Source: Candidatus Poribacteria bacterium (GTDB lineage Bacteria > Poribacteria > WGA-4E > WGA-3G). From it: a DNA stretch of 64,000 nucleotides. The DNA lies in contig CBDBFU010000014.1 in the NCBI GenBank assembly GCA_965205025.1, positions 192,001-256,000 on the forward strand, given 5' to 3'. The position numbers and the translations under genes are program-made. The notes under the pieces are model-generated. The model was not told the origin of the DNA. It searched no databases and worked only from the letters and a program-made list of their open reading frames with translations. The stretch's first letter is position 1. Every line of letters starts with the position of its first letter. Of the stretch, positions 15,602-61,186 are shown one piece after another.

Positions 15602-16192
15602 CCATAGGCGTCAATTTAGGAGAAAAAATGTTGTATCCCAGACCGGTAGGTGCGGTTTCCCAACCGCACTATTGGGCCTCAATTTTAGACTATGACTTTA
15701 TTGGTTTTGAGTCCCGGGGAATGCCTAAATGGCATTCATACCGTTGATTTGGTAGGGACGGAATGTCTATAGAAAAAGGATCAATTAACAAAATGAGTCC
15801 CGTAGGGACGGAATGTCTATAGAAGTGGTTATCACCAATATCCCAAGCCCCGGTGAATGCCATAAGGCATTCATACCCGGTGAACGCCAAAAGGCGTTCA
15901 TACCGTTGATTCCTTGATTCGCGGGGCGAAAGGTGTGTAGAAAACGTATAAACACAAAACACTAAGCCCCGGTGAATGACTAATGAAGATTAACTAAATA
16001 TTTCGGTAATTCTAATTTTCCCAAACCCGGTAGGTGCGGTTTCCTAACCGCACTGGATCTTTCTCCAAAATTACCGAATTTAAAAATTAATCTTCATATG
16101 TCATTCATACCCGGTGAACGCCAAAAGGCGTTCATACCGTTGATTCCTTGATTCGCGGGGCGAAAGGTGTATCCCTAAATTGACGCCTATGG
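15602..16192. mobile_element. Composite MITE A with 19-bp TIRs and 18-bp target duplication, containing nested elements
   Basis: ccataggcgtcaatttagg (15602-15620) / cctaaattgacgcctatgg (16174-16192), flanked by tgtgtatagaattatata on both sides (15584-15601, 16193-16210). Confidence 0.88.
15983..16097. mobile_element. Element Y copy 2
   Basis: atgaagattaa...ttaatcttcat TIRs; carries gtaggtgcggtttcctaaccgcac; lies in the loop of gaatgac-ta|at-gtcattc. Confidence 0.85.
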
Positions 16193-16415
16193 TGTGTATA
16201 GAATTATATACCTACCCAATGATAGATCTTTATATGTAAGACACCGGTGTGCTATAAAGGGTACATACAACAGAAAAATCCAACGCATCTATGCAAGCTT
16301 CTCGGCAAGTCAAATAATTAGTTGTGTCAAAATTAATTGATTATGGTATAGGTTTTTAGTATAATATCAAACAGGAAGATAACTCCAAAATTTTCATTAT
16401 TTTAAGGAAAAGAAT

Positions 16416-17186
16416 ATGCAACGTAAAAGCTCCCGATCAAAATACTGTATGGGTGAACTGATTGAACGTGAAGATTTTTCTGAAGATTTAGCCGCCTTCA
16501 AATTCAAGACTGACCAAAAACTCCCGTTTATTCCTGGACAATATGCTACCATCGGTTTTGAAGTGAATGAAAAGATTGTTCAACGACCCTATTCAATTGT
16601 ATCATCACCTCACGAAGATTTTATGGAGGTGTTTGTAGAATTGGTACCGGAAGGTGCTACAACTCCACTGTTTTGGGAATTGAAACTTGGCGATAGTGTT
16701 TTTATCAGGGATCGTCTTGTTGGGAAGTTTGTTATGGATGTGGATAGTGGTATGACCCGTCATGTTATGGCAGGAACAGTTACAGGGGCTGCTCCTTATA
16801 TCAGTATTGCTCGGACGTTGAAGATTGAACAGGAACAGGGTAAATCGAACCCGCATGAGATTCTTACTATTGTTGGGGCAAGTCGTTCATGGGAACTTGG
16901 GTATTATATGGATGAGCTGAATGAACTTGCTGCTCAGGAGGAATGGTTTAGTTTTGTGCCTACTGTGAGCCGTCCCTGGGAAGATGAAAAGTGGGAAGGT
17001 GAGAGTGGACGTGCTGAAGATGTTATCCGTAAATATGGGGACGAGATGGGGTATGATCATACGAATTCAGTTGTTTATGCGTGTGGACATCCACAGATGA
17101 TTGAGAATTCCAAGGCTATTTGGTCACGTGCACGTTTCCCTGAGGAACGGATTAAAGAGGAGAAGTTTTTTGTAATTAAGGAGTAG
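16416..17186 (+). CDS. Ferredoxin-NADP+ reductase-like FAD/NAD(P)-binding oxidoreductase
   Basis: FIPGQY, RPYSIVS, GTVTGAAPY, VYACGHPQMI, EKFF C-terminus. Confidence 0.88.
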   Translation: MQRKSSRSKYCMGELIEREDFSEDLAAFKFKTDQKLPFIPGQYATIGFEVNEKIVQRPYSIVSSPHEDFMEVFVELVPEGATTPLFWELKLGDSVFIRDRLVGKFVMDVDSGMTRHVMAGTVTGAAPYISIARTLKIEQEQGKSNPHEILTIVGASRSWELGYYMDELNELAAQEEWFSFVPTVSRPWEDEKWEGESGRAEDVIRKYGDEMGYDHTNSVVYACGHPQMIENSKAIWSRARFPEERIKEEKFFVIKE

Positions 17187-17227
17187 GTTTGACGGAGAAT
17201 TGTTAAAAGATTGCATGTTAAATAAAT

Positions 17228-17270
17228 AGCGGTAACTGATGAATTGTGCTTCGGTTACCGCTTTCTTTTT
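17228..17270. terminator. Probable intrinsic terminator between convergent genes
   Basis: agcggtaactga...tcggttaccgct followed by ttcttttt. Confidence 0.6.
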
Positions 17271-17277
17271 AGTAATA

Positions 17278-19764
17278 CTATTTTACTTTTCTTAGTAAAT
17301 CTCTAAGATAATTTGAAGGAACAGCGAAGTTGATATTTTGTGCGCGATTTACTTTTGCTTTCGGATCAACCCTATAGTATGCCAATGTAGCGATTCCCAC
17401 GACATTACCTTTATTGTCTAATACAGCTCCACCACTACTCCCTGGTGAAATAGCAGCTGTCATTTGTAACCATTTGCTTTTTCCTGTATCTCTAATGCTA
17501 CTTATTATACCATCTGAAACAGTTCCTTCTAATCCTTCAGGATTACCAACAGCATAGATTTTCTCACCTACTTCGACCAGATCGCTATTGGATAAAGATA
17601 ATGGGTTTGTTGTTGCCCCAGAAACTCTTAGTATAGCAAGGTCATGTTCTATATCAGTTGCTTCTATGCTCTCTACCTTGAACCTAATAGTCGTATCTAC
17701 TAATCTTGCCGTTATCAATGAAGATCCTTTAATAACATGGTAGTTTGTCGCAATTAAATCACGTCGTACAAAAAAGCCACTTCCTAAACCAACTACATCA
17801 CCCTTCGCATTTAGTCTGTTGAGGAACACAGTTGACGACAGTGCTTCTTGAGCAATTTGTTGTCCAGTTAGTTGAAGGTTAGATTGTTTTGTTCTTGAAT
17901 TATCGTTAGGTGTAATGTGTTTATTGGGTAAATCCTTTTCTTGCTGATGTAGACTCTCTTTAAGTTTGTCCATATTACAGATAAATATTGAACCGTTTTC
18001 ACAACCAATAATCAATGATCTTTGATCCTTAGAAAAAACAATTGAAGTTATTTCACTTGGGTATGGGAGTAATGATATTTGCCCCTTGCTTTCAAAATTC
18101 TGTTGATATTGAGCTAATAAAATCTGACCCTTTTTATTCCCTATGAGAAGTATTGAATCTTCATGTCGATATCCTAAAGCTGATATAGTACCGATTGGTC
18201 CTAAATCAATACCATTTCCTATTTCTCTTCCAGTTAAGGCATCCCATTTCCTGAGAGTACCATTTTGTTCCCCACTGAATAATATGCTACCATCTGATGA
18301 AAATGTTAAAGATGTGATAGGGTGCTGTGCCCCTGTGAGTTTCTTTAACACTCTTTCAGTTTGAATATTAAATATATAGATGTTCCCGTCGGCACCACCT
18401 GTAGCGATCACAGAATTTCTTGGTGATATTGCTAAAGCTGAGATTCCATGCGGATTTCCATTAAATCTATGAGAAACAGTTGTCGTCTGAATTGAATTTT
18501 TGTTACTAAGAATTTTCTGTACTTCAGATAAAAACACAGTTCCATCATAGCTGCCTCCACTTGCGACATGTCTTCCATCATTAGAAAATATAACGGATTG
18601 GGTTAGATCAAAATGATCCCGTATTGTAGAAAGTTCGCTGCTTGTACCTGCATCCCATATTCTGAGTTTTCCATCTAAACCTGTACCACTTGCCCGAATA
18701 CGATTATCTTCAGTATACACTAATGCTTTTATCCTACCAGTATGTCCAGAAATGTCAAACTTTTTCCTCTCTCCAATTACATCCCATACAAACACTGTTC
18801 CATCTGGACTTCCACTTACAATAATCTTACTATCAGATGAACAGTCAAGTACAGAAACTTGGTCTTTATGGCCTTTTAATGGATTCTGTTGTTCGGTATA
18901 TGTCTGTGTATTCCATATTCGTATTAACTTGTCAGCACTTCCAGTAACTAATGAATTACCATTGGATAGATAACTTACTGTATAGACTGGACTCTCATGT
19001 GAGATTGTAGAGTTGAGTTTCCCACCGACACCAACTAAACTCCATACTCTAACCGTTTGGTCTGTACTGGCACTGACTAACTTTTTTCTGTCAGGCGAAA
19101 AAACTACCTGTTCAACAGGTTTTGTATGTTCAGTAAATAAGTAAATCTGATCACCTGTATTTGCATCCCATACTTGAATAGTTCCATTTACACTACCACC
19201 CGCTACTAATTGACTATCAGACGAGAAAGCAACAGTCAACACGGTATCTCTATATGGTAATAATTTCGATTCTATTCTATCCCTATGATGAGCAGGAAAA
19301 TTTGCAAGATTCCATAGTCTAATATTGTTATCTGCACTGGCACTTGCAAGTTTTGATCCATCAGGAGAGTATGTTAAATCATATATTTTCTTATTATGTC
19401 CCCTAAGAGTGTTTTTTTCTATATCCTGGTTTCTTCTGACAAGATTCCATAATCTTATGGTTCTATCTTGATGGGCTGCGGCTATGTACCGTCCATCAGG
19501 AGAATATGAGATAGCGTTTGCACCACCCATAATCCCTTCGAATCTATGCACTTCACGACCTGTCCTGCTATCATATATCCAAATACCAATTGTAGTTGCT
19601 ACGGCAAATTGGTCCCCATTAGGAGAAAATTTTATATCCTGAATCCATCCTTTTCCTAAGCGTTCTTCAACGAAGGCTGGAAGATTATCTTGAGCAATTA
19701 AATGTGGTGTGATAATTAAAATGAGAACTTCACAGAATAATAACAAATACAATAATTTCTTCAT
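17278..19764 (-). CDS. Secreted WD40-repeat protein fused to a C-terminal trypsin-like serine protease
   Basis: Signal peptide, roughly 13-14 WD repeats, protease triad motifs ATNYHV, DLAIL, ISPGSSGG. Confidence 0.92.
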   Translation of the reverse strand: MKKLLYLLLFCEVLILIITPHLIAQDNLPAFVEERLGKGWIQDIKFSPNGDQFAVATTIGIWIYDSRTGREVHRFEGIMGGANAISYSPDGRYIAAAHQDRTIRLWNLVRRNQDIEKNTLRGHNKKIYDLTYSPDGSKLASASADNNIRLWNLANFPAHHRDRIESKLLPYRDTVLTVAFSSDSQLVAGGSVNGTIQVWDANTGDQIYLFTEHTKPVEQVVFSPDRKKLVSASTDQTVRVWSLVGVGGKLNSTISHESPVYTVSYLSNGNSLVTGSADKLIRIWNTQTYTEQQNPLKGHKDQVSVLDCSSDSKIIVSGSPDGTVFVWDVIGERKKFDISGHTGRIKALVYTEDNRIRASGTGLDGKLRIWDAGTSSELSTIRDHFDLTQSVIFSNDGRHVASGGSYDGTVFLSEVQKILSNKNSIQTTTVSHRFNGNPHGISALAISPRNSVIATGGADGNIYIFNIQTERVLKKLTGAQHPITSLTFSSDGSILFSGEQNGTLRKWDALTGREIGNGIDLGPIGTISALGYRHEDSILLIGNKKGQILLAQYQQNFESKGQISLLPYPSEITSIVFSKDQRSLIIGCENGSIFICNMDKLKESLHQQEKDLPNKHITPNDNSRTKQSNLQLTGQQIAQEALSSTVFLNRLNAKGDVVGLGSGFFVRRDLIATNYHVIKGSSLITARLVDTTIRFKVESIEATDIEHDLAILRVSGATTNPLSLSNSDLVEVGEKIYAVGNPEGLEGTVSDGIISSIRDTGKSKWLQMTAAISPGSSGGAVLDNKGNVVGIATLAYYRVDPKAKVNRAQNINFAVPSNYLRDLLRKVK

Positions 19765-19820
19765 ATTGTTCCTTGATTTATATCTATATTACATCCTATG
19801 TTTATTATGAATTCCTAAGA

Positions 19821-21773
19821 TTATTCAGTTATTGCATCTCTAAGTTGTATGGCAGACTCGTATGTAGCATCAATTTCTAACGCCATATTTACATGATGTA
19901 ATGCATATTCAAAGGAATCCAACCCATAATACGCAATTGCTAAGTTAAAATATGCCTTCTTGTATTGGTTGTCTATTTCTATCGCATTCATTAGGGGTTT
20001 TATAGACTTTTCATATTCACCCTTATGGATATATGCGAATCCTATCTTAGCGTGTATTCTTTTATCATTTCTATCCAGTTCAAGACATTTATTTAATTCA
20101 TTTATCCCAATATCTAACATGTTCTTATCAATAAAACTTGATCCACGGACATAATATCTGTCCTTTATGTCAGATAATAACAATTCTGCAATTTCTAATC
20201 CTGGCTTAGTCTCTAATGCTCTTTTAGCAAATGAAACTGCTTCCTCAAGTTCATCATTATTATAGTGAATTCGACCTTCTTCCACAAATATATCCTCTCT
20301 TGTAGGTTCAGGTTTAAGACCATTCTGATCAGAGATATTATTTGATTTTCCTACTATACGTCTCTTTATTTCTTGCATTTCATTTAGCATTTCTAAGTTA
20401 TCACTATAGGCACTTACTCTAAATCTTTTATCTGCAGTATCTATTAAATTAATAATTATACTATATATGTCATTTGAATCATCCGTACCATCTGCGATAT
20501 ATGAATAAGCCTTAACTAAATGTAAATAAGAACTAATTAAATCCATTCTTTCTATGTACATAGGATATGCATACTCACTAATAAGTATATTGAAATATTC
20601 AATTGATTCCTTATAATATTCTTTGTTATTGCCTCCAGCCATGTAATAACAATAACCGCACCAATATAGTGCGTAGACTTTGTCATCAGACAATAAATCA
20701 CTAATTGCCAATCGTTTAAATAGAGTAGCTGCTTCTAAGAATTTACCATTAAAACGTAAGGAAGTTGCCTTACGGAAAAGATCTGAGTTATTAGTTTTTG
20801 GTCCTACAGTTTCATCCATATCTTCTGGAACAAAATATGTTTCTTTAGATTTATTGTCCAATAATTGTTTATATGTTGGGTTGTTAGTCCTATCAATTGC
20901 TAACTGATAGTATCTTCGTGCCTCAGGATAATTGCTCACATCAGTATAGATATCAGCAATTAACTCATAAGCTTTAGATAAATACTGACTATTTGGGTTG
21001 TCTGTAATCGTTTTTAACACTAAAAATGCATCGAATGCCTTATCTTGTTTTTTTAACTCAACGGCTGTTTGATAAAGGGTTTCATCAGTGAGTTGTTTGT
21101 TCTCAGCATTTTCGTCCCTATCCACATTGACATTTTGAGTTTTATTATTTTCCACTAAAAGATTTGATAAACGGTGTTCTATATCAGTACGATAGTTTGT
21201 AGTTGGAAATTCATCAATTAGTCGGTTAAACGCAGCATGAGCTTCTTCATAGTTTCGTGGGTTAGAATTTATTATACCAATTTTATATAATGCTTCTTCA
21301 ACTAATGAACTCTGAGGATATAGCCGAATAAAGTGAGAATATTTTTCATCAGCTTCCAAAGGCATTTTGTTCTTATATAATATTTCTGCCCATAAGAATG
21401 TAAGATTTGACTTATGTCGGATCTCATTAGTGTTTGATATAGATTGTCGGATATGATTCAATGCAATCGGATAGTATTTCTGTCTGTTGAAATCACTAAT
21501 TTCACCCAGTTTTTCATAACACAGTGCAATCTTATAATTTGCCAGGCCCGTGAAGTCGTTATCAATGAATTTAGGTCTTGCTCCGACTTTGTTGGAGGCT
21601 TTTATTGCTTTCTTATAGATCTTTATTGCTTCCTCGTATTTTCGAATTTCAAATAAATTTTCAGCATGATCATAATGTTTCTCGACTTTCTTTGCACTTC
21701 CTAAAACAAGAGGGGATAGTAAAGCAATTATTAATGCCACTCCTCCAATTATTCCGAGAGTTTTTGTATCCAT
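19821..21773 (-). CDS. TPR-repeat protein with N-terminal membrane anchor
   Basis: Hydrophobic N-terminus, BamD/YfiO-like TPRs (YPQSSLVEEALYKIG), C-terminal TPRs. Confidence 0.85.
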   Translation of the reverse strand: MDTKTLGIIGGVALIIALLSPLVLGSAKKVEKHYDHAENLFEIRKYEEAIKIYKKAIKASNKVGARPKFIDNDFTGLANYKIALCYEKLGEISDFNRQKYYPIALNHIRQSISNTNEIRHKSNLTFLWAEILYKNKMPLEADEKYSHFIRLYPQSSLVEEALYKIGIINSNPRNYEEAHAAFNRLIDEFPTTNYRTDIEHRLSNLLVENNKTQNVNVDRDENAENKQLTDETLYQTAVELKKQDKAFDAFLVLKTITDNPNSQYLSKAYELIADIYTDVSNYPEARRYYQLAIDRTNNPTYKQLLDNKSKETYFVPEDMDETVGPKTNNSDLFRKATSLRFNGKFLEAATLFKRLAISDLLSDDKVYALYWCGYCYYMAGGNNKEYYKESIEYFNILISEYAYPMYIERMDLISSYLHLVKAYSYIADGTDDSNDIYSIIINLIDTADKRFRVSAYSDNLEMLNEMQEIKRRIVGKSNNISDQNGLKPEPTREDIFVEEGRIHYNNDELEEAVSFAKRALETKPGLEIAELLLSDIKDRYYVRGSSFIDKNMLDIGINELNKCLELDRNDKRIHAKIGFAYIHKGEYEKSIKPLMNAIEIDNQYKKAYFNLAIAYYGLDSFEYALHHVNMALEIDATYESAIQLRDAITE

Positions 21774-21797
21774 ACTAACTCCTTATTCTTTCGGGAC

Positions 21798-24062
21798 TTA
21801 ATCTATCGGGTCTGGACCGAGTACTCTTAATGTAAGATCTTTTTCTGCAATTGTTTTATTTTTACTATCAACCAATGTAATATTCAATTTATTACTTGAT
21901 GTAACAGCTCTCGTATTAGATGTGATTTTTATATTTATAGTTTCATTCTTATTCTTGGTTATATTGAATCTATTATTGGGAATAGTAAATTGTAATCCTT
22001 TTATGGAATTAGGAGATATCCTCAAACTGATGTTTCTTGCTGTACTTCCACTATTTGCTATTTTTAGATTTAAACTATAATCCTGTCCAGAAAAGATTTG
22101 ATTAGATGGTTTCCCATATCTATTTAGCAATGTAGTTTCAATTGAAAGTTTGGGCTGAATTTGATTTTTAGAAGTTTTTCTGTTAGAACTAGTATTTGTA
22201 TCTGAACTGTCCTTATTATGAACTGTCTGATTACTTTGATTTTTTCCATCCGTTTGTTTACGATTTGAATCGAAGATATCAAAGAAAGTAAATACATCAT
22301 ACCGATATGCAATAAACAATCCAGCAAAAACTACTAAGACTATAGAAGCATACAAAAGTACTTTCTTTCTCTTTTTGTCATTCTTTTCAACCTTTTGAAT
22401 AAACTTTATCGTCTGAATGATATCCTGCGATGGTTTATGATTAGGGTTAAGTGCTAATGCCTTTTCTGCTGCAAGTTTGGCATTAGTATAATCACCCATG
22501 GCAAGATAGGTGTCACCTAAACGAGAATGACCATCAATATGGTTGGGATCAGTCTGAATAACCTTTTGGAATGAATCAACAGCTTGATCATATTGTTTTA
22601 TATTTAGAAACACTAAACCCCGTTCCAATTCCTTATCTATATCAATATCTTCTTGAGGTACAATCTCATTTTTAACCTCTTCACCATCAGAATCTTCTGA
22701 ACGTTCAACCTCTATCTCAGACAACAATTGTTTTGCGTCAGGTGAATTTTGATCAATCCGTAATACCTCTTGGACTGAACTTTCCGCTTCATCTAATTGC
22801 TGGTTCTGAAAGTATGCTTTTGCCAAACCAAGATGAGCATCAGCATAATCAGATTTAAGATCTAAAGCATTCTGAAATTCGCTTATAGATTCGTCTATCT
22901 TACCGGCATCAAGGTATGCCATTCCAGTTGCATAATGTGCTTCATGTCTTGGTTGAGTTGTAGTTGTTGAATCTGTAGTTTTTGGTGTAGCATTTTGAGT
23001 TTCATCTGTAGTATCGTTAGAATCAGCTTTATATGTAGGATCTATTGCTTCTAAAAGTGTCTTAGCAGGTTGATAATTTGGATCAATTGATAATGAATCT
23101 TTTGCAGCATTTCTTGCATTGTCAAGTTCACCTAAACCAAGGAATGTGAGTGCAAGACTATGATGTGCTTCCTTATTCCTTGGATCAAGTGATATAGTTT
23201 TTTGCAGATTATCTAATGCTCTAGGATAGCTCTCCAATTTCAAATGTGCTACTGCCAGATTATATTGTGCAGCAGTATAACCTGGATCAAGGGTAATGAC
23301 ATTCTGGAGTGAGGCTATTGCATCACTATAACGTTCATCTTTGAGAAATGTGATTCCATTGTTGTAATGTGTTTGTTTAATTGATTCTACAAGAGCATGA
23401 ATTGGTTGGAATTTAGGATCAAGTCGAAGAGTCTCTATAGCAGCATTCGTTGCAGCTTCTAAATTCCCTAACTCTCTATGGGCACGAGCAAGGTAGTAGT
23501 GTGTTTCTATTTGATTAGGATTTCTAACGATTGCGTCATCAAGGTATTGAATGGCATCTTGATATTGTTTTATTTCAACAAAAGCATTTCCTATGAGATA
23601 ATAGACATCGTCATAACTATTGTTAGATGAAATAGAGCTTTTTAATGAGTCAACTGCTTTCTCATAGTCCTTAAGACCCAGATAAGATCGACCAAGGTTA
23701 TAATTCGTATCTTTATAATCAGAATCAAGTATTATAACTTTTTCAAATGTAGTGACTGCATCCTGATAGTTTTTACCTTCTAATAATGTAATACCATTTT
23801 CGTAATGTGTGGTTTTTATTGTTTCACTTATGTCTTTCACTGAAGGATAATCAGGATTCAGTTTTAAAGCAGCAAGAATAGAGAGTTCGGCTTTGTACAG
23901 ATCATTTAACTCCAAATAGGCGCGACCGAGTCCACAGTGAGCATCAATATAATCAGGATCCACTTGAATCACTGCTTCGAATTCTGGAATAGCCTCTTTA
24001 TACTGTTGATCATTTAGATATGCGATGCCGAGATTGTAGCGTGCTTCTTTTATGGCATTCAT
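21798..24062 (-). CDS. Multi-TPR protein with one TM helix and a C-terminal Ig-like domain
   Basis: Many canonical TPRs (YNLG.AY...), KKRKK then TM segment VLLYASIVLVVFAGLFIAY, beta-rich C-terminus. Confidence 0.88.
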   Translation of the reverse strand: MNAIKEARYNLGIAYLNDQQYKEAIPEFEAVIQVDPDYIDAHCGLGRAYLELNDLYKAELSILAALKLNPDYPSVKDISETIKTTHYENGITLLEGKNYQDAVTTFEKVIILDSDYKDTNYNLGRSYLGLKDYEKAVDSLKSSISSNNSYDDVYYLIGNAFVEIKQYQDAIQYLDDAIVRNPNQIETHYYLARAHRELGNLEAATNAAIETLRLDPKFQPIHALVESIKQTHYNNGITFLKDERYSDAIASLQNVITLDPGYTAAQYNLAVAHLKLESYPRALDNLQKTISLDPRNKEAHHSLALTFLGLGELDNARNAAKDSLSIDPNYQPAKTLLEAIDPTYKADSNDTTDETQNATPKTTDSTTTTQPRHEAHYATGMAYLDAGKIDESISEFQNALDLKSDYADAHLGLAKAYFQNQQLDEAESSVQEVLRIDQNSPDAKQLLSEIEVERSEDSDGEEVKNEIVPQEDIDIDKELERGLVFLNIKQYDQAVDSFQKVIQTDPNHIDGHSRLGDTYLAMGDYTNAKLAAEKALALNPNHKPSQDIIQTIKFIQKVEKNDKKRKKVLLYASIVLVVFAGLFIAYRYDVFTFFDIFDSNRKQTDGKNQSNQTVHNKDSSDTNTSSNRKTSKNQIQPKLSIETTLLNRYGKPSNQIFSGQDYSLNLKIANSGSTARNISLRISPNSIKGLQFTIPNNRFNITKNKNETINIKITSNTRAVTSSNKLNITLVDSKNKTIAEKDLTLRVLGPDPID

Positions 24063-25288: not shown

Positions 25289-25327
25289 ACCTATCCTAAC
25301 GGAACATACCAATACATACAATTTAGT

Positions 25328-25353: not shown

Positions 25354-25355
25354 CA

Positions 25356-29327: not shown

Positions 29328-31430
29328 TTATTCTTCAATTACTTCATCATCTATTGCCGGTTCAATTACTTCGTCATCTATTATTGGTTCAATGGGTTGA
29401 ACTTCGACTTCAATTTCTGTGTCTCCAGTCACAATAAACCTATTTACGATGAATGGCAGACCAGTAATTGGTACTGGTAATGGTTCCTCAATTTCTTCCT
29501 GTAGTTCACCATCGTCAGGTAGTTCACCGTCTTCAGGTAGTTCACTGTCATCTGGCATTTCACCATCGTCAGGTAGTTCACCGTCTTCAGGTAGTTCACT
29601 GTCATCTGGCATTTCACCGTCCTCTGGGAGTTCACCATTATCAGGTAGTTCACTGTCTTCACCTATATCAGGTTCTGGTAGGTTCTCGAACAATGTGGTA
29701 AAGAATTGTTCAAAGAAATTTTCAAAAAGTTCTTCGATTTCTGGATCGAGCATTTCAGGTTCATCCTCTAATGCAGCAAGCGTTACAAGGACTAATCCTT
29801 TATCATACTGACCATCTTTGAGTTGATATATCAGTTGATCTAAACTCTCTGGAGATGGAGCATTCTGTATACCAAAAGGATTGAAACCGAAAGTTGTCGC
29901 AGAGGTGACGGCTAAACGAGCTGGACCAGGTATGAAGTTTTCAGGTATTTGGAGTTTAACTTCTCTATACATCTTCCGATTTCTACCAGCAGCACTCCAA
30001 TGTGGTAACATCTCAACGACAAAAGTTGCTTCTTCACCCTGTTTAATTTCACCAACAACATGAATATCAGTTATCTCTGTGTGTAGAATATATGGTATAT
30101 CTATGAGAGATATCTTGACTTCATCAATGGTTGCTCTTTCAGCACCATTATAGAGAATATTGGATAATGGTTGAATTATTGATTTCATATTTTCCAATAC
30201 AGCTTTAAACGGGTCTGGTGCGATTGTTCTGAATGATTCTGTATAGACAGTATCAGTTTCTTTAAAACTAATTGCGACATTGGCTTCAATTGTACCCGGA
30301 CTAACTTCCATTCGAATTGAATCCAGTGTTGTAGCAACTACAACTGGAATTGCCCATTCTTGACCATATGCTACCTCATGGTTTTTCTGAATAGGTACTT
30401 GACTGTTGACGGGTTTATAATACACAGTAACAGGAATCATATCAGGTAATTTACCAAGTTCACCTACAATACCAGGCCTAAGGTCTTTGGTAATTGTACC
30501 TATTGGATTCCCATAAGCAGAAGCAGATTTATATGCAATTTCTGTATTCGGAACTATTCCATCAACTACAGCTCTGTATACAGGGAGTGACACCTTGCCA
30601 GCACGAAACATGTCATGACCAAAGGCAACAAAATTCCCATCATAAACCTGAGTGACAGTTCCAAAACCTATACTGTTTACAACATCACCGGTTGCGATTG
30701 CAACACCAATCATGTCACCCGCAGAAAGTTGTAATGTCGCATTTGCTGGTGGGGCAACAGGAGCACCGCCTATCCTTGAGAAAAATTGCACAGAATCAAA
30801 ATGTGTACCGCTAAGATGATCCGAAAGTTGTTGTAACCTGTTGTTGTCAACACCAGAGATTGTAACTGGAGTCTTCACTTTGGTAAAGGTCGCTTTTATT
30901 CCACCGCCTGGAGCAGCAGGTGGATTCAAAATATCACCAAAGGTTGTATGGTTAATGGTCGCTTCCATAGCTTCAATTGGTGTAACCAAAAATCTATATG
31001 GAGCTTTAGCCCAGGCGTCCCCATAAGCAAGAGCACCGAACACTCTTCCTGGAGGTCCAACTGGACTACCCGACATACCTTGTGCAACTCCTCCCATTGC
31101 TGTCACTGCTTCGTCGGTAAGAACACATTCATAGAGTGGAAATCCAAATCCAGAAGGTTGAATTCTACGAAATTCAGCTTCAAAAGCTACTTTACTCGTT
31201 CCTTCAATGGCAGTAATTACTTCTATACGGGTCTTAGTTGCAAGTTTACTGACTTCAGCTTCATACATCGGTTCAAGCACTACTTCTCCAACCAAAGGTG
31301 CTCCATTAAATACATTTGATACATCAGCAATAGTTGGATTTTGAACTTCAGGTTGTTCTTCATCCTGAGAACAACCGAATTGTATTATAATTGCTAATGT
31401 AATAAAAGCTATAACAAAATATCGTTTCAT
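29328..31430 (-). CDS. SpoIVB/peptidase S55-domain lipoprotein with acidic repeat tail
   Basis: Lipobox QFGC, GVAQGMSGSPV, GALAYG, AFGH; C-terminal (ELPEDG)n repeats. Confidence 0.85.
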   Translation of the reverse strand: MKRYFVIAFITLAIIIQFGCSQDEEQPEVQNPTIADVSNVFNGAPLVGEVVLEPMYEAEVSKLATKTRIEVITAIEGTSKVAFEAEFRRIQPSGFGFPLYECVLTDEAVTAMGGVAQGMSGSPVGPPGRVFGALAYGDAWAKAPYRFLVTPIEAMEATINHTTFGDILNPPAAPGGGIKATFTKVKTPVTISGVDNNRLQQLSDHLSGTHFDSVQFFSRIGGAPVAPPANATLQLSAGDMIGVAIATGDVVNSIGFGTVTQVYDGNFVAFGHDMFRAGKVSLPVYRAVVDGIVPNTEIAYKSASAYGNPIGTITKDLRPGIVGELGKLPDMIPVTVYYKPVNSQVPIQKNHEVAYGQEWAIPVVVATTLDSIRMEVSPGTIEANVAISFKETDTVYTESFRTIAPDPFKAVLENMKSIIQPLSNILYNGAERATIDEVKISLIDIPYILHTEITDIHVVGEIKQGEEATFVVEMLPHWSAAGRNRKMYREVKLQIPENFIPGPARLAVTSATTFGFNPFGIQNAPSPESLDQLIYQLKDGQYDKGLVLVTLAALEDEPEMLDPEIEELFENFFEQFFTTLFENLPEPDIGEDSELPDNGELPEDGEMPDDSELPEDGELPDDGEMPDDSELPEDGELPDDGELQEEIEEPLPVPITGLPFIVNRFIVTGDTEIEVEVQPIEPIIDDEVIEPAIDDEVIEE
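29497..29660 (-). repeat. Coding tandem repeat (18-bp units within a 54-bp higher-order repeat)
   Basis: Encodes ELPDNG ELPEDG EMPDDS ELPEDG ELPDDG EMPDDS ELPEDG ELPDDG. Confidence 0.85.
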
Positions 31431-47438: not shown

Positions 47439-47510
47439 GCGGGTGTAGCTCAGCGGTAGAGCATCAGCTTCCCAAGCTGAGGGTCGCGGGTTCAATTCCC
47501 GTCACCCGCT
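47439..47510 (+). tRNA. tRNA-Gly (CCC)
   Basis: gcgggtg/cacccgc acceptor stem, anticodon loop ttcccaa, GTTCAATTC T-loop; CCA not encoded. Confidence 0.95.
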
Positions 47511-52465: not shown

Positions 52466-52483
52466 GAACTCATAGAAGAAAAA

Positions 52484-54331: not shown

Positions 54332-54350
54332 TATAAAGGAGAACTAAGCA

Positions 54351-55958
54351 GTGGACTTAGAAACAACCCACCCACTTGATATAACGGAATCGGATAACAG
54401 CGATCAAATTGAAATAGATGAGTTAATCGATTTACCCCCAGGGGAAGTAAGTGAACGGGAGGACCTCATTAAGGTCTATTTACGCGATATGGGAAAAATA
54501 CCGTTGCTTGATAAAGATATGGAGATCGAATTGTCTCAACAAATTGAGATGGGTCACCATCAAGTACAAGAAGCAACATTCACAACGCGATTGGCAATTG
54601 CCGAGGTAAGAAAACTATTATATAAGATCATAATTGCCAAAAAACGTGCTTCTGATCTCATTGATATGAGAATTTCAAGCAATTCCACGCGCGATAAAGA
54701 ACGGAAACTTCGTAATAAGGTAGAGAAGACTATGCGTGTGATTGAAGAACTGGAATTGGAGTATCTTGATGCTGCGAAAAAATCCATCAATGACAATTCT
54801 CAGGTGGAACTCCCAACGATAGGAAATCACTCTACATTTTTAAAGCACATTGAACAACTGAAGATTGACCGTGAAGAAATAAGTAAAATCTCCGGTCAAG
54901 TAAAAGATGTGGAACGAAACATAAGTGACCGTGAACAAGCTATTTTACGCCTTCAAAGTGAACATAAGATCTCTCCCGAATGGTCAAATGGCAGGATTGA
55001 TGTCAAATTGAAGGAGTTTAAATCTGATGCTGCCAAACAAGCATATATACAAATTGTACGATATGAACGTGAAATACAGCAATATCTCAACACAATAGGC
55101 ATATCACGGGATTCCCTCCATAGTATTACAAAACAGATTTGTTTAGGAGAAGCAAATGCCCAAGATGCTAAAATGGCAATTGTTGAAGCAAATCTTCGAT
55201 TAGTCGTTAGTATCGCAAAGAAATATAGACATCAAGCTCCTGGACTTGAATTTCTTGATTTAATTCAAGAAGGCAACATAGGATTAATGCGGGCTGTAGA
55301 TAAATTCGACTATCAAAGAGGATTTAAGTTCAGTACTTATGCAACATGGTGGATTCGTCAGAGCATTACTCGTGCCATTGCTGACCAAGGACGAACAATA
55401 CGGATACCTGTACATATGCACGAAAGAATCAATAAAATGCGACGGGCAGAACGCTCATTACTTCAAGAAATAGGTCGAAGACCTACACCCGAAGAAATTG
55501 CTGATGATATGGGAATACCACCAGAAAAAGTAAGAGAAGTATTAAGAATTGTTCCTGAAACAGTTTCGCTGGAAACACCTATCGGTGATGACGACGATGA
55601 TAGTCAATTAGGGGATTTTATTGAGGATGTAAGCGTTTTATCCCCTTCCACTGAGGCAGAACTCAGTATCCTAAAAGAACGTATACAAGAAGCACTCATT
55701 GATCTTTCTGAAAGAGAACGTGAAGTTATTGTTCTTAGGTTTGGCATTGAAGATGATTCCAATAATCCTCTGTTGTCTGAGCATACACGTCAACGGATAG
55801 AAGAATTATGTATCACTACTGGATATCCTAAGACACTTGAAGAAGTGGGTGAGGTATTTGCTGTTACACGAGAACGTATACGCCAAATTGAGGCGAAAGC
55901 ACTCCGAAAACTACGCCATCCTGTTCGGAGCCATCGACTTCGTGGATTCATTGAGTAG
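54351..55958 (+). CDS. rpoD: Primary sigma-70 factor
   Basis: [57 protein letters not shown]; follows dnaG. Confidence 0.95.
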
Positions 55959-56047
55959 TCATGTATCAGATACTTTGTAGAATCCAACGGATTATTTTAT
56001 AAAATTCTTGAATTTTAATTATATGGAAGGTATAATTAAGATACTAA

Positions 56048-56121
56048 GGGTCCATAGCTCAGTGGTCAGAGCCGTCGGCTCATAACCGACTGGTCCCTAG
56101 GTTCGAGTCCTAGTGGGCCCA
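56048..56121 (+). tRNA. tRNA with CAT anticodon (probably Ile2, lysidine-modified)
   Basis: gggtcca/tgggccc acceptor stem, loop ctcataa; lacks the initiator GGG/CCC anticodon stem; located after rpoD. Confidence 0.9.
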
Positions 56122-56133
56122 TTCTTCTTTTTA

Positions 56134-56206
56134 GGGGCGTTAGCTCAGGGGTACGAGCGCTACCTTCACACGGTAGAAGTCACTGGTTCAAATCCAGTAC
56201 GCCCCA
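56134..56206 (+). tRNA. tRNA-Val (CAC)
   Basis: ggggcgt/acgcccc acceptor stem, ctacc-ttcacac-ggtag anticodon arm, GTTCAAATC. Confidence 0.93.
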
Positions 56207-56263
56207 TTATCAAGAAAACACCCCAATTACCCACTTACTATATCTATTTACCCAACAATAACT

Positions 56264-56704
56264 ATGCATGAGCATGAACCCCGTTGGATACAACGTGCAA
56301 ACAGTTTTAAGAGAGCATTAGCTCAATTGAAATCGGCTGTTAAACTAAGGGAACAACGTGAACTTTCAGATTTAGAATCACAAGGCTTAATACAAAGGTT
56401 TGAATTTACACATGAACTCGCTTGGAAAACTCTGAAAAATTTCCTTGAATCTAAAGGTTTGATGAATTTATACGGTTCACGAGACACAACACGGGCAAGA
56501 GATGACTTTAGGAATGGATCTGATATTGATTTGACGTTGTATGGTGGGGATGAACTAACACACACTGTTGTTTCTCAAATTTCAATTGACCTTGACGATC
56601 AATTGCTACCGTATACCATTGATTTATCTATTTTTAAGAATCTTCGTAATCCTGAAATGATTAAAGAAATTGAACGCATTGGAAAAATATTCTACAGAAG
56701 ATAA
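56264..56704 (+). CDS. In-frame fusion of HEPN (HI0074-like) N-terminus and MNT nucleotidyltransferase C-terminus; probable deletion derivative of a HEPN-MNT pair
   Basis: RWIQR..F..AL..QGLIQRFEFTHELAWKTLK (HI0074 family) joined to ARDDFRNGSDIDL...LPYTIDL...IERIGK (MNT). Confidence 0.8.
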   Translation: MHEHEPRWIQRANSFKRALAQLKSAVKLREQRELSDLESQGLIQRFEFTHELAWKTLKNFLESKGLMNLYGSRDTTRARDDFRNGSDIDLTLYGGDELTHTVVSQISIDLDDQLLPYTIDLSIFKNLRNPEMIKEIERIGKIFYRR

Positions 56705-56823
56705 CGTGAGTTTGATAATAGGTTTATGAACTTCATTTTATCTAAAATATTACTCTCATAGACCCGGTAGGTGCGGTTTCCTAACCGCACTGAATTCAAA
56801 AATTTGAGTTTTCAAACTCACGT
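56704..56823. mobile_element. MITE Z, 12-bp TIR, 8-bp TSD, carrying a GTAG REP
   Basis: acgtgagtttga / tcaaactcacgt; agaagata duplicated at 56696-56703 and 56824-56831; internal gtaggtgcggtttcctaaccgcac. Confidence 0.85.
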
Positions 56824-56848
56824 AGAAGATAGATTGTTAAGGTCATAA

Positions 56849-57619
56849 ATGCAAGAATTCAAAATTGGAAATCACACATATACATCAAGGCTCTTAATCG
56901 GCACAGCAGGATATCCGAATTTCCAGATCATGACAGAAGCAATCTTGGCAAGTGGAGCAGAAATAGCTACTGTTTCGATGCGTAGAGTTAAATTTACTGA
57001 TTCATCTGAAGAGAATCTATTTACACTTCTAAGTGAACGAGGAATTACAATACTCCCAAATACTGCTGGGTGTTTTACTGCCAAGGATGCAATCTTAACT
57101 GCACAGCTTGCACAAGAAGCACTTGCAACCTCATTGATTAAACTCGAAGTAATAGGTGATGATCAGACACTATTCCCAGATGTTGAGCAACTACTCTCTG
57201 CTGCGGACACTCTTGTAAAGGATGGATTTACTGTTCTCCCCTATTGCAATGATGACCCTATTACATGTAAGAAATTAGAAGACCTTGGCTGTGTAGCAGT
57301 TATGCCGTTAGGTGCACCCATTGGTTCTGGAATGGGGATTCGAAACCCATATAACATACAAATAATACGTGATAGTGTCAATGTTCCACTTATTGTCGAT
57401 GCGGGGGTCGGAACAGCATCAGATGCAGCAATCGCAATGGAATTAGGATGCGATGGTGTATTACTCAACACTGCTGTTGCCAAAGCACACCGACCTGTCC
57501 TTATGGCAGAAGCCATGAAGAAAGCTGTAGAAGCTGGCCGTGCTGCATTCTTAGCAGGACGTATTCCTCGGAAACTCTATGCTACTGCTTCAAGTCCACA
57601 AGATGGATTGATAGAGTAA
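56849..57619 (+). CDS. thiG: Thiazole synthase
   Basis: [42 protein letters not shown]. Confidence 0.97.
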
Positions 57620-57674
57620 AATTCTGTAAATCATATTCACCCAATCTATGGTACAATAAAGTATTAGAAATTAG

Positions 57675-58895
57675 ATGAAAAAAACTACCCTTCCTATTCT
57701 GATAGGGATCGCTGTATACACACTCCTGTTTTCCCCATTTTCGCAACCCACGGATGCACAATTACAAGATCAATTTGGACAAGATCTACAACAGCTTGTG
57801 CCACCAACCCCACCAAAGACTGATACAGCTAAACTCACTATTGATCCAAATATAACAAATACCTTTAATAATCACATTGAGCTTGGATTGAGTGTTGACC
57901 CATACACAAGTAGTCTTGCTGGGCAAGAAAATCCACAGCTAATTGGGTTAATAAATCGGTTTGGTGTAAACTTTCAAGGTGATTTACCGATTGTAGATAA
58001 GAAATTGATGCTAAAATTATCTTATTCTCCGCAATATGAAAACTATAATGGAGCAGAAGGAAAACTTGATGAATTTGATGCATTTACAGACAGGTCTCTC
58101 ACTGAGTTAAGCTATAGTCCATTTTCAAATTCTCCTGAAATTACATTTTCACACAACCTTAAACGTCTGAAACGAACATTACCTGTCTATAATAATACTG
58201 ATCGTCAGATAGGACTAAGGTTCGGTCGTTTATTTGAATACAACTTTCGTATTCATAGATTTGATGATGAATCTGAACTAAGAGAGGATTTCCTTCTTAT
58301 TGGTTCAACCAGCCATAGAGCAACAACCCGTTTACAGTTTGGTTTACTCAGACAGATGATTGGAAAGGTTGAGTATTCGATTGAAAATGCCCGATACCAG
58401 ACAAATCTAAATAATCTAATATTAGGTATTTCTGGTCTGGAAGAAGGGGAAATAAGGGGTGATTGGAGACATGCTGGTAGTATAGAATTGTTACAGGTAA
58501 TCACGAAACGAATTGTATTTCAGGAAGAGGTTAACCTATTTAATAACCGTTCTAATGTAGATTTTTTTAATTTTCAAAGCACAGAAGCTGCATTTAGTAC
58601 ATTCTATAAGTTAGATACAGAAGATTGGGTTCGAATACGCCTTTCTCGGCTTTGGGTCGTTTTTGAACACAGAGGAATACGGGATGCAGAAGGTGCTATT
58701 ATGGAGAATGCAGGAAATCGGAGTGATAGACAATTCAGTATAAATACACAAACAAATTGGCAATTCTACGATAATATCTCACTAAATTTAGATTACAAAT
58801 ATACCTATAATGATTCGAATCAGATTGATCCGTTATACAGTTTTTTAGACTATCAACATAGTATATTAAGCGTAACATTACGCGGTAGTTATTAA
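57675..58895 (+). CDS. Probable outer-membrane beta-barrel protein
   Basis: Signal peptide, alternating amphipathic strands, C-terminal beta-signal-like LSVTLRGSY. Confidence 0.65.
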   Translation: MKKTTLPILIGIAVYTLLFSPFSQPTDAQLQDQFGQDLQQLVPPTPPKTDTAKLTIDPNITNTFNNHIELGLSVDPYTSSLAGQENPQLIGLINRFGVNFQGDLPIVDKKLMLKLSYSPQYENYNGAEGKLDEFDAFTDRSLTELSYSPFSNSPEITFSHNLKRLKRTLPVYNNTDRQIGLRFGRLFEYNFRIHRFDDESELREDFLLIGSTSHRATTRLQFGLLRQMIGKVEYSIENARYQTNLNNLILGISGLEEGEIRGDWRHAGSIELLQVITKRIVFQEEVNLFNNRSNVDFFNFQSTEAAFSTFYKLDTEDWVRIRLSRLWVVFEHRGIRDAEGAIMENAGNRSDRQFSINTQTNWQFYDNISLNLDYKYTYNDSNQIDPLYSFLDYQHSILSVTLRGSY

Positions 58896-58954
58896 AATCA
58901 AATCATCATCCCACCCAATTTCCTCAACAAACTCTGTTGAATCAATAATTATAG

Positions 58955-60490
58955 TTATCTCTCTCGTTGTCCTTTATAGAGTTTTAACCTTCCTTTAGCA
59001 TCTATCAGACTATAACATGCTTCAATTTCCTTAGAAACCTTCTCTGTATTAGGATCACCCCACAATAATAGATAATCAACATTGTCAGCATAATCACATA
59101 AATCAATCTGTTCTGATCGCCAATGGACAGTCTGTACCCATTCCTTTTCATCGGTTGGTGTTTCAAATGTGGGTTTGAAGTGAACAGGAAAATAGTCAAA
59201 CTGAACTTCATAGTTTCCAAGATTGATACAGCCGTTATCAAGACAATAATAATTGGCACCATTGACAAAAATGCCTACTCTTAAGGACTCTCCACCAGAG
59301 TCAAACTGTAAAGGAAGAATAACACTATTATCCTCAACTTTCTCAACGAAAGCATTGAATTCATCTAATTCAGTGTTTAGTTTTTTACAGAGTATACCAA
59401 TATAGGTGATATTAACTATTGCCAACATTGTTACTGCTACTGTAAATACTCTCTTCCAACTACGATTCTCACTTAATCTGAAACATGCAAACAAAGACAA
59501 CATTGATAGAATCAACAATCTGTCGTTTACCCATCCACCGGGACCAACGTTATTAGGTAGGATTAGATATAGACCGAACAGGACAACAAATAGAATCAAG
59601 AATAGTTTCTGTCCTGTATTCTCCTTGAAGAATTCCATTCTGCTTTTCCAAAAAGTAAAAATAGTAAGAAAAAGTAAAAATGCAAAAACACAATATGCTA
59701 TCCAAGATTGATTTTGATTATATGCGACTAACACCTTTAAACCGACAAGATTTTCCAATAAACCACCTATTCTTCCAAAATCAATATCTGGGAGTCTACC
59801 AGATAATAAATCGGATGTTGGCAAATATACCAAAAACATTAATGCAGCAGGTAGAACTGAACATCCGGTAAGCAAGATCTTTTTAAAGTTACGTCTATAG
59901 TGGACTACGGTGAGCAATGCAATCGAGAATAGAACAAAGGCATACGAAATCAAATGTGCAAAGTAGGTTATCAGTATTAATAGATTGATATAGATAATTT
60001 TTCTCGTATCCAAATTATCCTTGTATTTCCACCAGAACCCTAATGCTAAGAAAAACAGTGGAACACTCACTGCAAAGTTGTAGAAACCCATTAAGAGAAG
60101 ATAGTTATAGATGAAGGTAAAACTCAGAATTACTAACGAATTCTGGTTTGGTCTCACAGCATTTAGAAAATAATGAATAGATACTGGGAAAAGGATAACA
60201 TATAGACTCAAGAAAACCTTCTCTGCATATAATGGTGAGAAGATATACATTAATAATGTCAACGATATATGTGATAACCAGTTAGGGAATGGGAACCAAT
60301 GAATGTCGTAGTAATCACCAAACTCAAAATCAGGATTATTATAATCTGTAATTATGTGTGAGTTATAGACATGGCTTATACCATCTTGTGTAGGGAAGTA
60401 GGTGAAAAGCCAAATTGGTAATAGATAGAAAAATATCAGTGTACCAATTAGCAAATTTGATTTCGTGTAATACCTTGAAAGATCTTTCAT
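58955..60490 (-). CDS. Polytopic membrane protein, GT-C glycosyltransferase-like
   Basis: About 11-12 TM segments, first-loop PTQDGISH motif, soluble C-terminal domain. Confidence 0.6.
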   Translation of the reverse strand: MKDLSRYYTKSNLLIGTLIFFYLLPIWLFTYFPTQDGISHVYNSHIITDYNNPDFEFGDYYDIHWFPFPNWLSHISLTLLMYIFSPLYAEKVFLSLYVILFPVSIHYFLNAVRPNQNSLVILSFTFIYNYLLLMGFYNFAVSVPLFFLALGFWWKYKDNLDTRKIIYINLLILITYFAHLISYAFVLFSIALLTVVHYRRNFKKILLTGCSVLPAALMFLVYLPTSDLLSGRLPDIDFGRIGGLLENLVGLKVLVAYNQNQSWIAYCVFAFLLFLTIFTFWKSRMEFFKENTGQKLFLILFVVLFGLYLILPNNVGPGGWVNDRLLILSMLSLFACFRLSENRSWKRVFTVAVTMLAIVNITYIGILCKKLNTELDEFNAFVEKVEDNSVILPLQFDSGGESLRVGIFVNGANYYCLDNGCINLGNYEVQFDYFPVHFKPTFETPTDEKEWVQTVHWRSEQIDLCDYADNVDYLLLWGDPNTEKVSKEIEACYSLIDAKGRLKLYKGQRER

Positions 60491-60675
60491 AATTTATCCC
60501 TTTAGATACGTAAATCCTCTCACGCGACTGATTCTACTTTCATCTTACCATATTTCTACATTTTAATAATCAACGAATTGATTCTATCACATTCCTATCC
60601 TACTGGATAGTCCACGCTAAATTTACAAGTTGTCTTTTTCGATAGAAGCAATCATACAAAAACCATTACCTCGTC

Positions 60676-61186
60676 CCGGTAGGTGCGGTTTCATGTAGAT
60701 TAAGAAAATATTTCGGTAATTCTAATTTTCCCAAACACGGTAGGTGCGGTTTCCCGGGGAATGCCTTATGGCATTCATACCGTTGATTCACCACGGGGAA
60801 TGCTAAATAGCATTCATACCGTTGATTTGGATCTTTCTTTAAAATTACAGAATTTAAAAATTAATCTACATCTAACCGCACTATTAGCGTCAATTTTAGA
60901 CTATGATTTTATTGGTATTGAGTCCCATAGGGACGGAATGTTTATAGAAAATGTGTATATCCCATAATTGAGTCCCGGGGAATGCCTAAATGGCATTCAT
61001 ACCCGGTGAACGCCAAAAGGCGTTCAACCGTTGATTCCTTGATTTGGTAGGGACGGAATGTATATAGAAGTCGTTATCAGCTAATATCCTAAGCCCCAGC
61101 GGGGCGAAATGTTTGTAGAAAACGGTTAAACCCACTAACAAAGCCCCAGCGGGGCGAAATGTGTATCCTGAAATTGATGCTTATGG
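60676..61186. mobile_element. Second, left-truncated copy of composite MITE A with different nested insertions
   Basis: Colinear with 15643-16192; right TIR cctgaaattgatgcttatgg (61167-61186); left TIR not found. Confidence 0.8.
60693..60871. mobile_element. Element Y copy 3 (contains two X units)
   Basis: atgtagattaa...ttaatctacat TIRs; splits gtgcggtttc|ctaaccgcac. Confidence 0.85.

Follow-up and report, generated by a model that had tools for sequence, protein, structure and literature searches.

The 64,000-nt stretch of a Candidatus Poribacteria genome analysed here (assembly GCA_965205025.1, contig CBDBFU010000014.1, positions 192,001 to 256,000; hereafter the window) carries nine copies of a short hairpin module, which we call X, in two mosaics of interleaved repeats. 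X is a real, discrete and probably mobile micro-element. The explanation that we regard as the best overall, with slightly better than even confidence, is that X is a non-autonomous micro-element of 34–36 nt that moves as one unit within a hairpin mosaic resembling those built of repetitive extragenic palindromes (REPs), i.e., a bacterial interspersed mosaic element (BIME)-like mosaic. X is gained or lost whole within this mosaic, and its sites are the loops and feet of the hairpins REP1, REP2, H3 and H4 and the loops of X itself or of a sister module, X2. The most recurrent site is the head/tail boundary of another X, directly after CATACC, which yields head-head-tail-tail 'Russian dolls'. 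X would enter single-stranded, folded DNA, a trans-acting protein would recognise its conserved leader and tail, and most copies would then multiply second-hand, either travelling with the host repeat or exchanged by recombination among its copies. The unit, its sites, its presence or absence between near-identical paralogues, the order of nesting and the distribution are observed, whereas the direction of change (towards gain and not loss), the catalyst and the single-stranded nature of the target are what we infer.

X consists of a C-GG(G/T)G leader, a 7-bp stem starting with GAA, a loop of 4–5 nt, a 3' arm ending in TTC, and a tail, ATACCGTTGATT, which is invariant and is the same in two genera. 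Its ends (CGGGG... and ...GTTGATT) are not inverted repeats, and 18 of the 36 alignment columns do not vary. The hairpin is maintained by compensatory change. Among the 261 copies of the source genome that are anchored on both sides, 219 are fully Watson–Crick paired at the four variable stem positions, compared with 77.7 ± 6.5 (maximum 99) when the 3' arms are shuffled; one mismatch is found in 34 copies and two or three in 8. The paired copies fall into six stem types. All four stem variants named by a first-pass annotation of the window are present. In 49 distinct sequences from many genomes, two-sided changes occur at four of the seven stem pairs (15 cells) and one-sided changes at none, a pattern that 0 of 500 shuffles equalled, although X copies are kin, so that the shuffle results for stem pairing are not probabilities. 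Sliding the register lowers the paired fraction to 27–51%, and at least seven founder stem types retain pairing. As single-stranded DNA, the composites of host repeat and X are predicted to fold into nested hairpins closed by the host stem, with z scores of −4.0 to −5.4.

X is a family-wide element of sponge-symbiont Poribacteria. The source genome (5.66 Mb in 33 contigs, 38.5% G+C) holds about 261 copies when both sides are anchored and pairing is not required, and 183 under a strict pattern. Applied to one genome per species, the strict pattern yields at least 83 stretches; among the matches listed, some of them in chromosome-titled records, all come from Candidatus or uncultured Poribacteria, bar one metagenome-assembled genome titled 'uncultured bacterium'. 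A covariance model, as the first-pass annotation had envisaged, was built on 49 distinct copies from many genomes and was searched against 151 genomes of the phylum, the source genome included, the match counts per genome being lower bounds. X was found in 90 of the 99 other genomes of the source family, f1 (37 of 37 in genus g1, 52 of 57 in g9 and 1 of 2 in g10), and is therefore not a peculiarity of the source assembly. Consensus-level scores are reached in both large genera, and strict counts range from 0 to 213 across the species of one genus. Outside the family, X was found in 1 of 51 genomes (1 of 26 in family f3 and 0 of 25 in seven other families). The one match in f3, in genome G151, is consensus-grade; contamination or transfer is possible there.

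Between near-identical paralogues, X is present or missing as a whole. Each complete X of the source genome was deleted in silico and the joined flanks were searched against that genome (n = 201). With at least 50 nt on each side, an X-less paralogue across the junction exists for 89 of the 201 at 88% identity or more, and for 40 at 95% or more; five remain at 97% or more with at least 100 nt on each side. These five belong to a single family of arrays of about 500 nt with at least six members, among them the first window locus. In six aligned arrays (C5, C7, C14, C18, C20 and C22), the flanks are 97–100% identical and the presence or absence of X differs at five sites. Site A, in the H3 3' arm, is filled in C14, C22 and C20 and empty in C5; site B, in the H3 loop, is filled in C7 and empty in C14, C22, C18, C20 and C5; site C, in the REP1 loop, is filled in C14, C18 and C7, the last with an extra inner X, and empty in C22, C20 and C5. 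The first REP2 (site D) is filled in C14, C20 and C7 and empty in C22, C18 and C5, and the second REP2 (site E) is filled in C14 and C7 and empty in C22, C18, C20 and C5. Since C18 is filled at C and not at D, and C20 at D and not at C, a single event cannot account for the pattern. Thus, the proposal that X is a minimal mobile unit stands as far as X is discrete and is the sole difference at the five array sites, but many copies have spread together with their host repeats.

Comparison of filled and empty forms defines the junctions. REP1 shows a clean gain of 36 nt between CCC and GTA, with one G ambiguous; in REP2, the loop A is exchanged for 34–35 nt ending in GATTC. H3 has TA replaced, its 3' arm has 4–5 bases replaced and one A added, and an X tail that receives another X has lost the G after CATACC to an insert ending in GATTCC. 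No target-site duplication is seen at X junctions, as the first-pass annotation had stated, and 0–5 target bases are replaced. The boundaries of X itself are constant over at least eight unrelated contexts, and its left flanks end in CC in five classes and in CCA, AGG or GGGG in others. The accompanying suggestion of IS200/IS605-like insertion is weakened by these junctions, which are non-uniform and have no fixed target word, in contrast to the precise rule of IS200/IS605.

The sites of X were surveyed by collapsing 236 X clusters into 140 distinct flank contexts. The H3 3' arm holds the most (59 copies, 27 contexts), followed by the REP2 loop (33 copies, 21 contexts), the H3 loop (28 copies, 10 contexts), the REP1 loop (26 copies, 15 contexts), the 5' foot of H3 or another GTAGG site (20 copies, 15 contexts), H4 (17 copies, 4 contexts), the tail of an X with an unparsed head (16 copies, 13 contexts) and the position after an X or X2 tail (6 copies, 6 contexts). 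The other 31 copies (29 contexts) include several inside the loop of another X or X2. X lies in or against at least six hairpin families, and 29 of the 140 contexts lie outside the named host classes. In 30 of the 140 contexts, the flanks of X pair to form a stem of 5 bp or more, against 7.2 ± 2.4 (maximum 14) with permuted right flanks and 4.2 ± 1.9 at random genome positions. The preference for structured repeats is real, and to this extent the claim that X targets structured DNA is borne out; the preference is for these repeat families, however, and not strictly for loops.

Only 3 of the 261 copies lie in long open frames, though such frames make up 81% of the genome. In the 102 intergenic regions between genes on the same strand, X runs with the genes in 71 and against them in 30, and one region is mixed; intact REP1, REP2 and H3 show a weaker orientation bias than X. 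Concordance of X orientation with local GC skew is 56%, on contigs whose replication direction is not established. The strictly intergenic location and the 71 to 30 bias are among the features expected if X were kept for the use of its host, for instance as an RNA structure or as a place where a regulatory or nucleoid protein binds, so that use and not mobility would explain why it is conserved; the 18 invariant columns, the compensatory stem changes and the consensus-level copies in two genera fit this reading as well. However, X occupancy is random among near-identical arrays, X is stacked up to five deep, it occurs only within other selfish-looking repeats, and its number swings from 0 to 213 within one genus, all of which makes host use improbable in our judgement.

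X nests in itself, and does so with a time order. A parse into heads and tails gave 239 clusters with at least one tail, with 230 tail-less anchor clusters excluded (the anchor is loose, and these were mostly taken as chance). Heads equal tails in 192 of the 239 clusters (161 single, 29 double and 2 triple), whereas 45 have extra tails and 2 extra heads; outer heads split by other inserts and an 8-mer that expands alone account for extra tails. The 32 adjacent head-head pairs comprise 23 outer/inner combinations. By stem type, CGCC is inner in ten pairs and outer in none, TGAC is inner in nine and outer in one, and TGCC, the commonest type, is inner in 10 and outer in 20 (Fisher, 1e-5). Such an asymmetry is expected of successive waves of insertion and would not be produced by symmetric recombination.

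The first-pass annotation had itself raised the prospect that nesting is an assembly artefact; collapsed or chimeric repeats would be its source. The short-read record could be taken that way: Logan contigs from four public runs, compared with positions 14900–16900, break inside the repeats throughout the locus, with none spanning it. The short sides of their joints are 20–38 letters, so that an origin in paralogues is possible and the joints are uninformative on empty alleles at this locus; one of them, from 15851 to 15921 with a single A between, equals the empty REP2 form. However, 33 of 40 genomes of the genus contain the nested junction word, with 34, 25, 16, 14 and 5 copies in single-contig assemblies, and in 2 of 21 loci from chromosome-titled records, and the nested copies differ from one another in sequence. 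An artefact is therefore excluded for practical purposes.

Several observations weigh against an element that moves as one unit. The junctions vary by host (none, A, TA, G or 4–5 bases replaced, and a 3' end of GATT followed by C, CC or TG). The 8-nt tail expands independently of the head, one variant unit five times over. All filled copies at each polymorphic paralogous site share one X subtype, and each host class is linked to a dominant type (48 of 56 copies in the H3 3' arm, about 20 of these 48 with identical long flanks; 19 of 28 in REP1, 13 of 32 in REP2 and 12 of 17 in H4). Because host classes and paralogous sites have such dominant subtypes, much of the copy number of X is second-hand, and the linkage fits excision loss or gene conversion as well as it fits insertion. 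Gain, precise loss and conversion from one host repeat to another could each have produced the array polymorphism. No catalyst of X was identified in the enzyme searches made here. Lastly, no X-only empty site was found between species: the corresponding intergenic regions of the nearest species have no mosaic and are unalignable. Mapping the sequences beside 120 X copies, which came from 84 foreign loci, to the source genome gave 14 candidate pairs, and the five inspected were cases of host-plus-X presence or absence, or of misalignment, and none was X-only. Two scans of metagenome contigs for strain-level orthologues, using conserved flanking words, gave no match. The empty sites anticipated by the first-pass annotation are accordingly found as X-less paralogues within the source genome but not between species.

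A rival reading has no transposase. In it, illegitimate events bring X into each host repeat once or a few times, after which X spreads or vanishes by homologous recombination or gene conversion between host repeats, perhaps following hairpin breakage, and by replication slippage in the arrays of heads and tails. Such a reading would account for one dominant subtype per host class and one per filled paralogous site, for two identical heads being the commonest nested pair (5 of 32), for the fivefold tail unit, and for the persistence of X in genomes with no detectable Y1 transposase gene. Moreover, chimeras occur in which the left half of a REP1 or H3 and the right half of a REP2 flank one X; since the two host halves are unlike, recombination at X does happen. 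However, the homology arms within the short hairpins are only about 7–25 nt, each host class holds 4–17 X types, and the inner/outer asymmetry (19 to 1 for CGCC and TGAC together, against 10 to 20 for TGCC) is not expected from symmetric exchange. In addition, the constant boundaries and the invariant tail in two genera point to sequence-specific recognition. On this evidence we consider recombination alone unlikely, if a serious contender, and keep to a unit that probably moves and is then carried onward with its hosts.

The host repeats REP1 and REP2 are REP-type hairpins, and the loci are BIME-like mosaics. Both repeats have the features of REPs: they are extragenic palindromes of high copy number with a conserved tail, direct and inverted about a Y1 gene, and of a type specific to the enzyme clade. 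A 15-mer of REP1 occurs 156 times in the source genome. A Pfam search of that genome for Y1_Tnp found, on contig C27 and thus not in the window, three intact genes that are 97–100% identical and encode 155 aa (100 bits), with HUH and Y-x3-Q motifs visible in the translations. Each has a direct REP1 array upstream and two inverted REP1 copies downstream, and this combination of direct and inverted flanks is the layout that PMC3337134 and PMC3479197 describe for REP-associated tyrosine transposases (RAYTs). A comparison of 20 homologous Y1 loci from the genus shows a separate type of flanking hairpin for every enzyme clade; the stems differ and the (A/G)TAG tail is retained in all, REP2 being one such type. 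It is because REP1 and REP2 flank Y1 genes, with the type set by clade, that we class the host repeats as REPs. In the near species G018, REP2 flanks a Y1 gene of one particular clade; the source genome has hundreds of REP2 copies, yet no gene from that clade. With curated models, the protein from C27 is accepted as IS200-type (84 bits), whereas its RAYT score of 32.7 bits stays short of the cut-off of 80. RAYT genes are single-copy as a rule, according to PMC3337134, whereas the gene here is present in three near-identical copies.

The Y1 protein is the only hairpin-specific candidate found among the enzymes of the source genome, the scanned multi-copy genes being DDE transposases. A Y1/HUH enzyme, either a RAYT or an IS200/IS605 TnpA, might move X in trans by binding its hairpin, cutting at leader and tail, and pasting it into single-stranded loops. 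Besides the intact genes and the clade-specific REP types, this is consistent with an X-like tail fused to the REP1 3' arm directly upstream of the Y1 start codon in the source genome and in G042 and G055, with the motif GGAATG.CTA.A common to the REP1 tail and the X 5' arm, with the missing target duplication, with the co-orientation with tandem genes, and with the results for other enzymes, namely no TnpB in the source genome and no IS110 match in five related genomes (G023, G001, G010, G017 and G049). A Y2_Tnp search of the same five genomes gave 0 matches, but the control gave none either. TnpB-like genes are present in all five (4–43 matches each), even where a Y1 TnpA is undetectable.

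However, the distribution of X does not follow that of Y1. Y1_Tnp has no match in G023, G001, G010 and G024, which nevertheless hold 100, 74, 87 and 29 strict X copies and 14, 8, 8 and 4 nested junctions, respectively; conversely, three Y1 matches are present in G003, where the strict pattern finds 0 copies of X and the covariance model no more than 4 weak ones. Over 40 genomes, counts of nested junctions and of Y1 are related with rho 0.16 (p 0.32), and the median number of nested junctions is 10.5 with the RAYT clade and 8 without it, in a comparison where kin genomes are non-independent and incomplete genomes can hide genes. Since G023 is a single contig with 100 consensus-grade X copies and no Y1, dependence on Y1 is hard to square with it, and X can clearly persist elsewhere without the Y1 enzyme. 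The first-pass annotation had expected mobilisation in trans by such an enzyme and a Y1 gene flanked by X. A Y1 gene with REP flanks does exist, but it is flanked by REP1 and not by X, the sole trace of X being a degenerate hairpin similar to it that lies just upstream, with a REP1 3' arm on either side, and the flanks of the 20 homologous loci likewise show REP types and not X; mobilisation by Y1 is spoken against by the four X-rich genomes. With imprecise junctions, no fixed target word and a GC-skew concordance of only 56% added, we consider Y1 as the mover of X to be possible but unlikely.

Two further ideas were tried and rejected. IS608-style pairing of guide and target is spoken against by the leader variant GGTG, which stays constant across flanks and does not co-vary with them. 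An integron attC or Xer-type site, compared by eye with the consensus sequences of such sites, does not fit, and the head-head-tail-tail order is unlike site-specific exchange at one core.

A more speculative variant would dispense with a dedicated transposase in another way: a conserved host replication or repair activity might copy the hairpin module into the single-stranded loops of other hairpins, a process that may be called hairpin-loop homing, and the invariant leader and tail would be what this activity reads. We rate it as rather unlikely. If true, it would explain why nested, consensus-perfect X occurs in genomes without a Y1 or IS110 match, why each host repeat keeps to its X subtype, and why a few loop bases are replaced in a manner that differs by host. 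The small dispersed repeats of cyanobacteria might be explained in the same way.

Within the window, all nine copies that the first-pass annotation had listed are present, four of them simple and three of them outer copies in which an inner X after CATACC parts the tail from the head. A 19-mer of the X core with up to 3 mismatches matches five times in the window and 0 times in 100 dinucleotide shuffles; the remaining four are either interrupted outer copies, each with an insert, or the inner copy with a deletion. The intact host forms, which the annotation had also reported, are there as well. The repeats below are read on the forward strand.

The first mosaic spans 15582–16211 and is bounded by a 22-nt direct repeat (15582–15603 and 16190–16211), and immediately within that repeat lie inverted motifs of 17 nt. 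The bracketing words may be repeat modules themselves, or else the mosaic arrived as one piece. The intergenic region that contains it is 797 nt here and 262 nt, with no mosaic, in the near species G018. At 15709–15774, a REP1 hairpin (5' arm 15709–15715; 3' arm and tail 15752–15774) holds one X (15715–15750) in its loop; the composite folds at −12.1 kcal/mol (z −4.0) and has an X-less paralogue at 92% identity. An intact REP1, with hairpin and conserved tail, follows at 15795–15824 and represents the empty host form. The REP2 at 15845–15945 carries an outer X (15851–15920, tail CCTTGATT), which itself holds an inner X (15878–15912) after CATACC. This composite folds at −25.2 kcal/mol (z −5.2) and has a paralogue at 96% identity without the inner copy, and Tandem Repeats Finder reports a 27-nt head period at 15849–15904 (2.1 copies). 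A second REP2, at 15964–16170, contains an outer X (15970–16154) with an inner X in its tail (16112–16146); the loop of the outer copy is split by a 115-nt inverted-repeat element (15983–16097), which in turn holds an intact H3 (16034–16053).

The second mosaic lies in an intergenic stretch of 752 nt (60603–61354), whereas the orthologous gap in the three nearest species is 78, 79 and 175 nt. An H3 at 60683–60881 (arms 60683–60692 and 60872–60881) has its loop split, by sequence and fold, by a 179-nt inverted-repeat element (60693–60871), whose own H3 bears two X copies, one in the loop (60755–60789) and one in the 3' arm (60794–60828). An intact REP1 variant with loop ATA (60920–60949) is followed by a REP1 (60970–61069) with an outer X (60976–61045) and an inner X (61004–61037) that lacks two bases of the ATACC box; the composite folds at −22.4 kcal/mol (z −5.4). 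Two intact REP2 copies (61091–61123 and 61141–61165, within 61091–61165) give the empty form of the second host repeat.

The H3 family has a conserved loop, TTTCCTAA, co-varying stems (GTGCGG, GTTCGG, CTTCGG, GTACGG and GCGAGG) and a TAG-bearing tail; judged from these sequences, H3 looks like a third class of REP, although a hairpin that binds protein or RNA is another possibility. A conserved TAGGCGTCAATTT motif follows H3, examples of which in the window are 16034–16053, 15648–15669 and 60683–60881. The inverted-repeat element, generally about 101–146 nt, has the ends ATGAAGATTAA and TTAATCTTCAT and an H3 hairpin at its centre, and it lies inside the loops of other hairpins. Its commonest host is an ACAAACT/AGTTTGT hairpin (about 57 copies, several loop variants), and loops of X and of H3 are further sites, none of them with a clear duplication; IS630-type DDE transposases of the source genome might be its movers. 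The sister module X2 has a longer stem, in which the leader CGCC pairs with GGCG, and the same GTTGATT end, and it likewise lies in REP loops. It is found at C20:99.0–99.3k and C23:52.8–52.9k of the source genome and at L137 and L145 in related genomes, and X inserts beside it and into its loop.

At the gathering score, an Rfam search of the window returned only three tRNAs, at 47439–47510, 56048–56121 and 56134–56206, and X matches no family. The stretch 29334–29661, apparently coding sequence, contains tandem repeats with periods of 18, 27 and 54 nt (up to 8.9 copies).

How repeats far smaller than transposons spread has, to our knowledge, been an open question since small dispersed repeats were described in 2008. 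The system presented here offers hundreds of X copies per genome, many single-contig relatives and copy numbers from 0 to more than 200, together with near-identical arrays that differ only in X occupancy and a readable order of nesting. It also has one obvious candidate enzyme that can be tested, which may well fail on present evidence. REP/RAYT-type mosaics exist in Poribacteria, and a literature search, supplements not covered, found no paper that joins Poribacteria with RAYT or REP. Their landing pads are layered, from REP through X, inverted-repeat element and H3 to X again, and short tandem repeats become concretely readable as the stacked tails of nested insertions.

X does not fit the definition of a REP or REPIN, of an IS200/IS605 miniature or of a classical miniature inverted-repeat transposable element (MITE). 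First, the mosaics of several motifs built by REP1 and REP2 are similar to the REP/REPIN-RAYT and BIME systems, as far as these are set out in Bertels & Rainey 2011 (PMC3116915), PMC3337134 and Messing et al. 2012 (PMC3479197), whereas X does not flank the Y1 gene and sits inside REP loops. A REPIN is an inverted REP doublet, whereas X is a single hairpin in one orientation per region (1 mixed region of 102), and in contrast to the dependence of REPs on RAYTs, four genomes with 29–100 X copies have no Y1_Tnp match. Second, IS200/IS605 miniatures (palindrome-associated transposable elements) carry a distinct hairpin at each end, enter exactly on the 3' side of a fixed tetra- or pentanucleotide with a strong strand bias, and probably move as single-stranded DNA. 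X is like them in being hairpin-based, in making no target duplication and, presumably, in moving as single-stranded DNA, and unlike them in having one hairpin, no fixed target word and 0–5 bases replaced. Third, classical MITEs have terminal inverted repeats and a target-site duplication, and X has neither feature.

Insertion into REPs is itself known. IS1397 is an insertion sequence that targets REP hairpins. The insertion of ISPpu9 is directed to REP palindromes according to PMC8450116. REP-directed insertion is common to these elements and X, but IS1397 and ISPpu9 are full-length and bring their own transposase, whereas X is 35 nt and non-coding.

The smallness of X, which the first-pass annotation had taken as unusual, and its nesting are not without precedent. 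The small dispersed repeats (SDRs) SDR1–8 of Nostoc punctiforme (Elhai et al. 2008, Genome Res 18:1484) are reportedly only 21–27 nt long; they are reportedly hairpins with compensatory changes, nested in each other and in other repeats and close to short tandem repeats. We know of no catalyst for them. As far as these accounts go, X is like the SDRs in being shorter than 40 nt, dispersed, a compensated hairpin, nested, and present or absent at matching sites, which for X are paralogous. X differs from them in coming from a different phylum, in its length of 34–36 nt, in having REP-type hairpins and not the HIP1 octamer as hosts, and in that the tandem 8-mers seen with X lend themselves to interpretation as tails stacked up by nested copies. 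SDR5, as PMC4390886 describes it, enters the HIP1 octamer at a fixed position. By the features described for each, X appears to most resemble the cyanobacterial SDRs, set in a REP/BIME-like mosaic.

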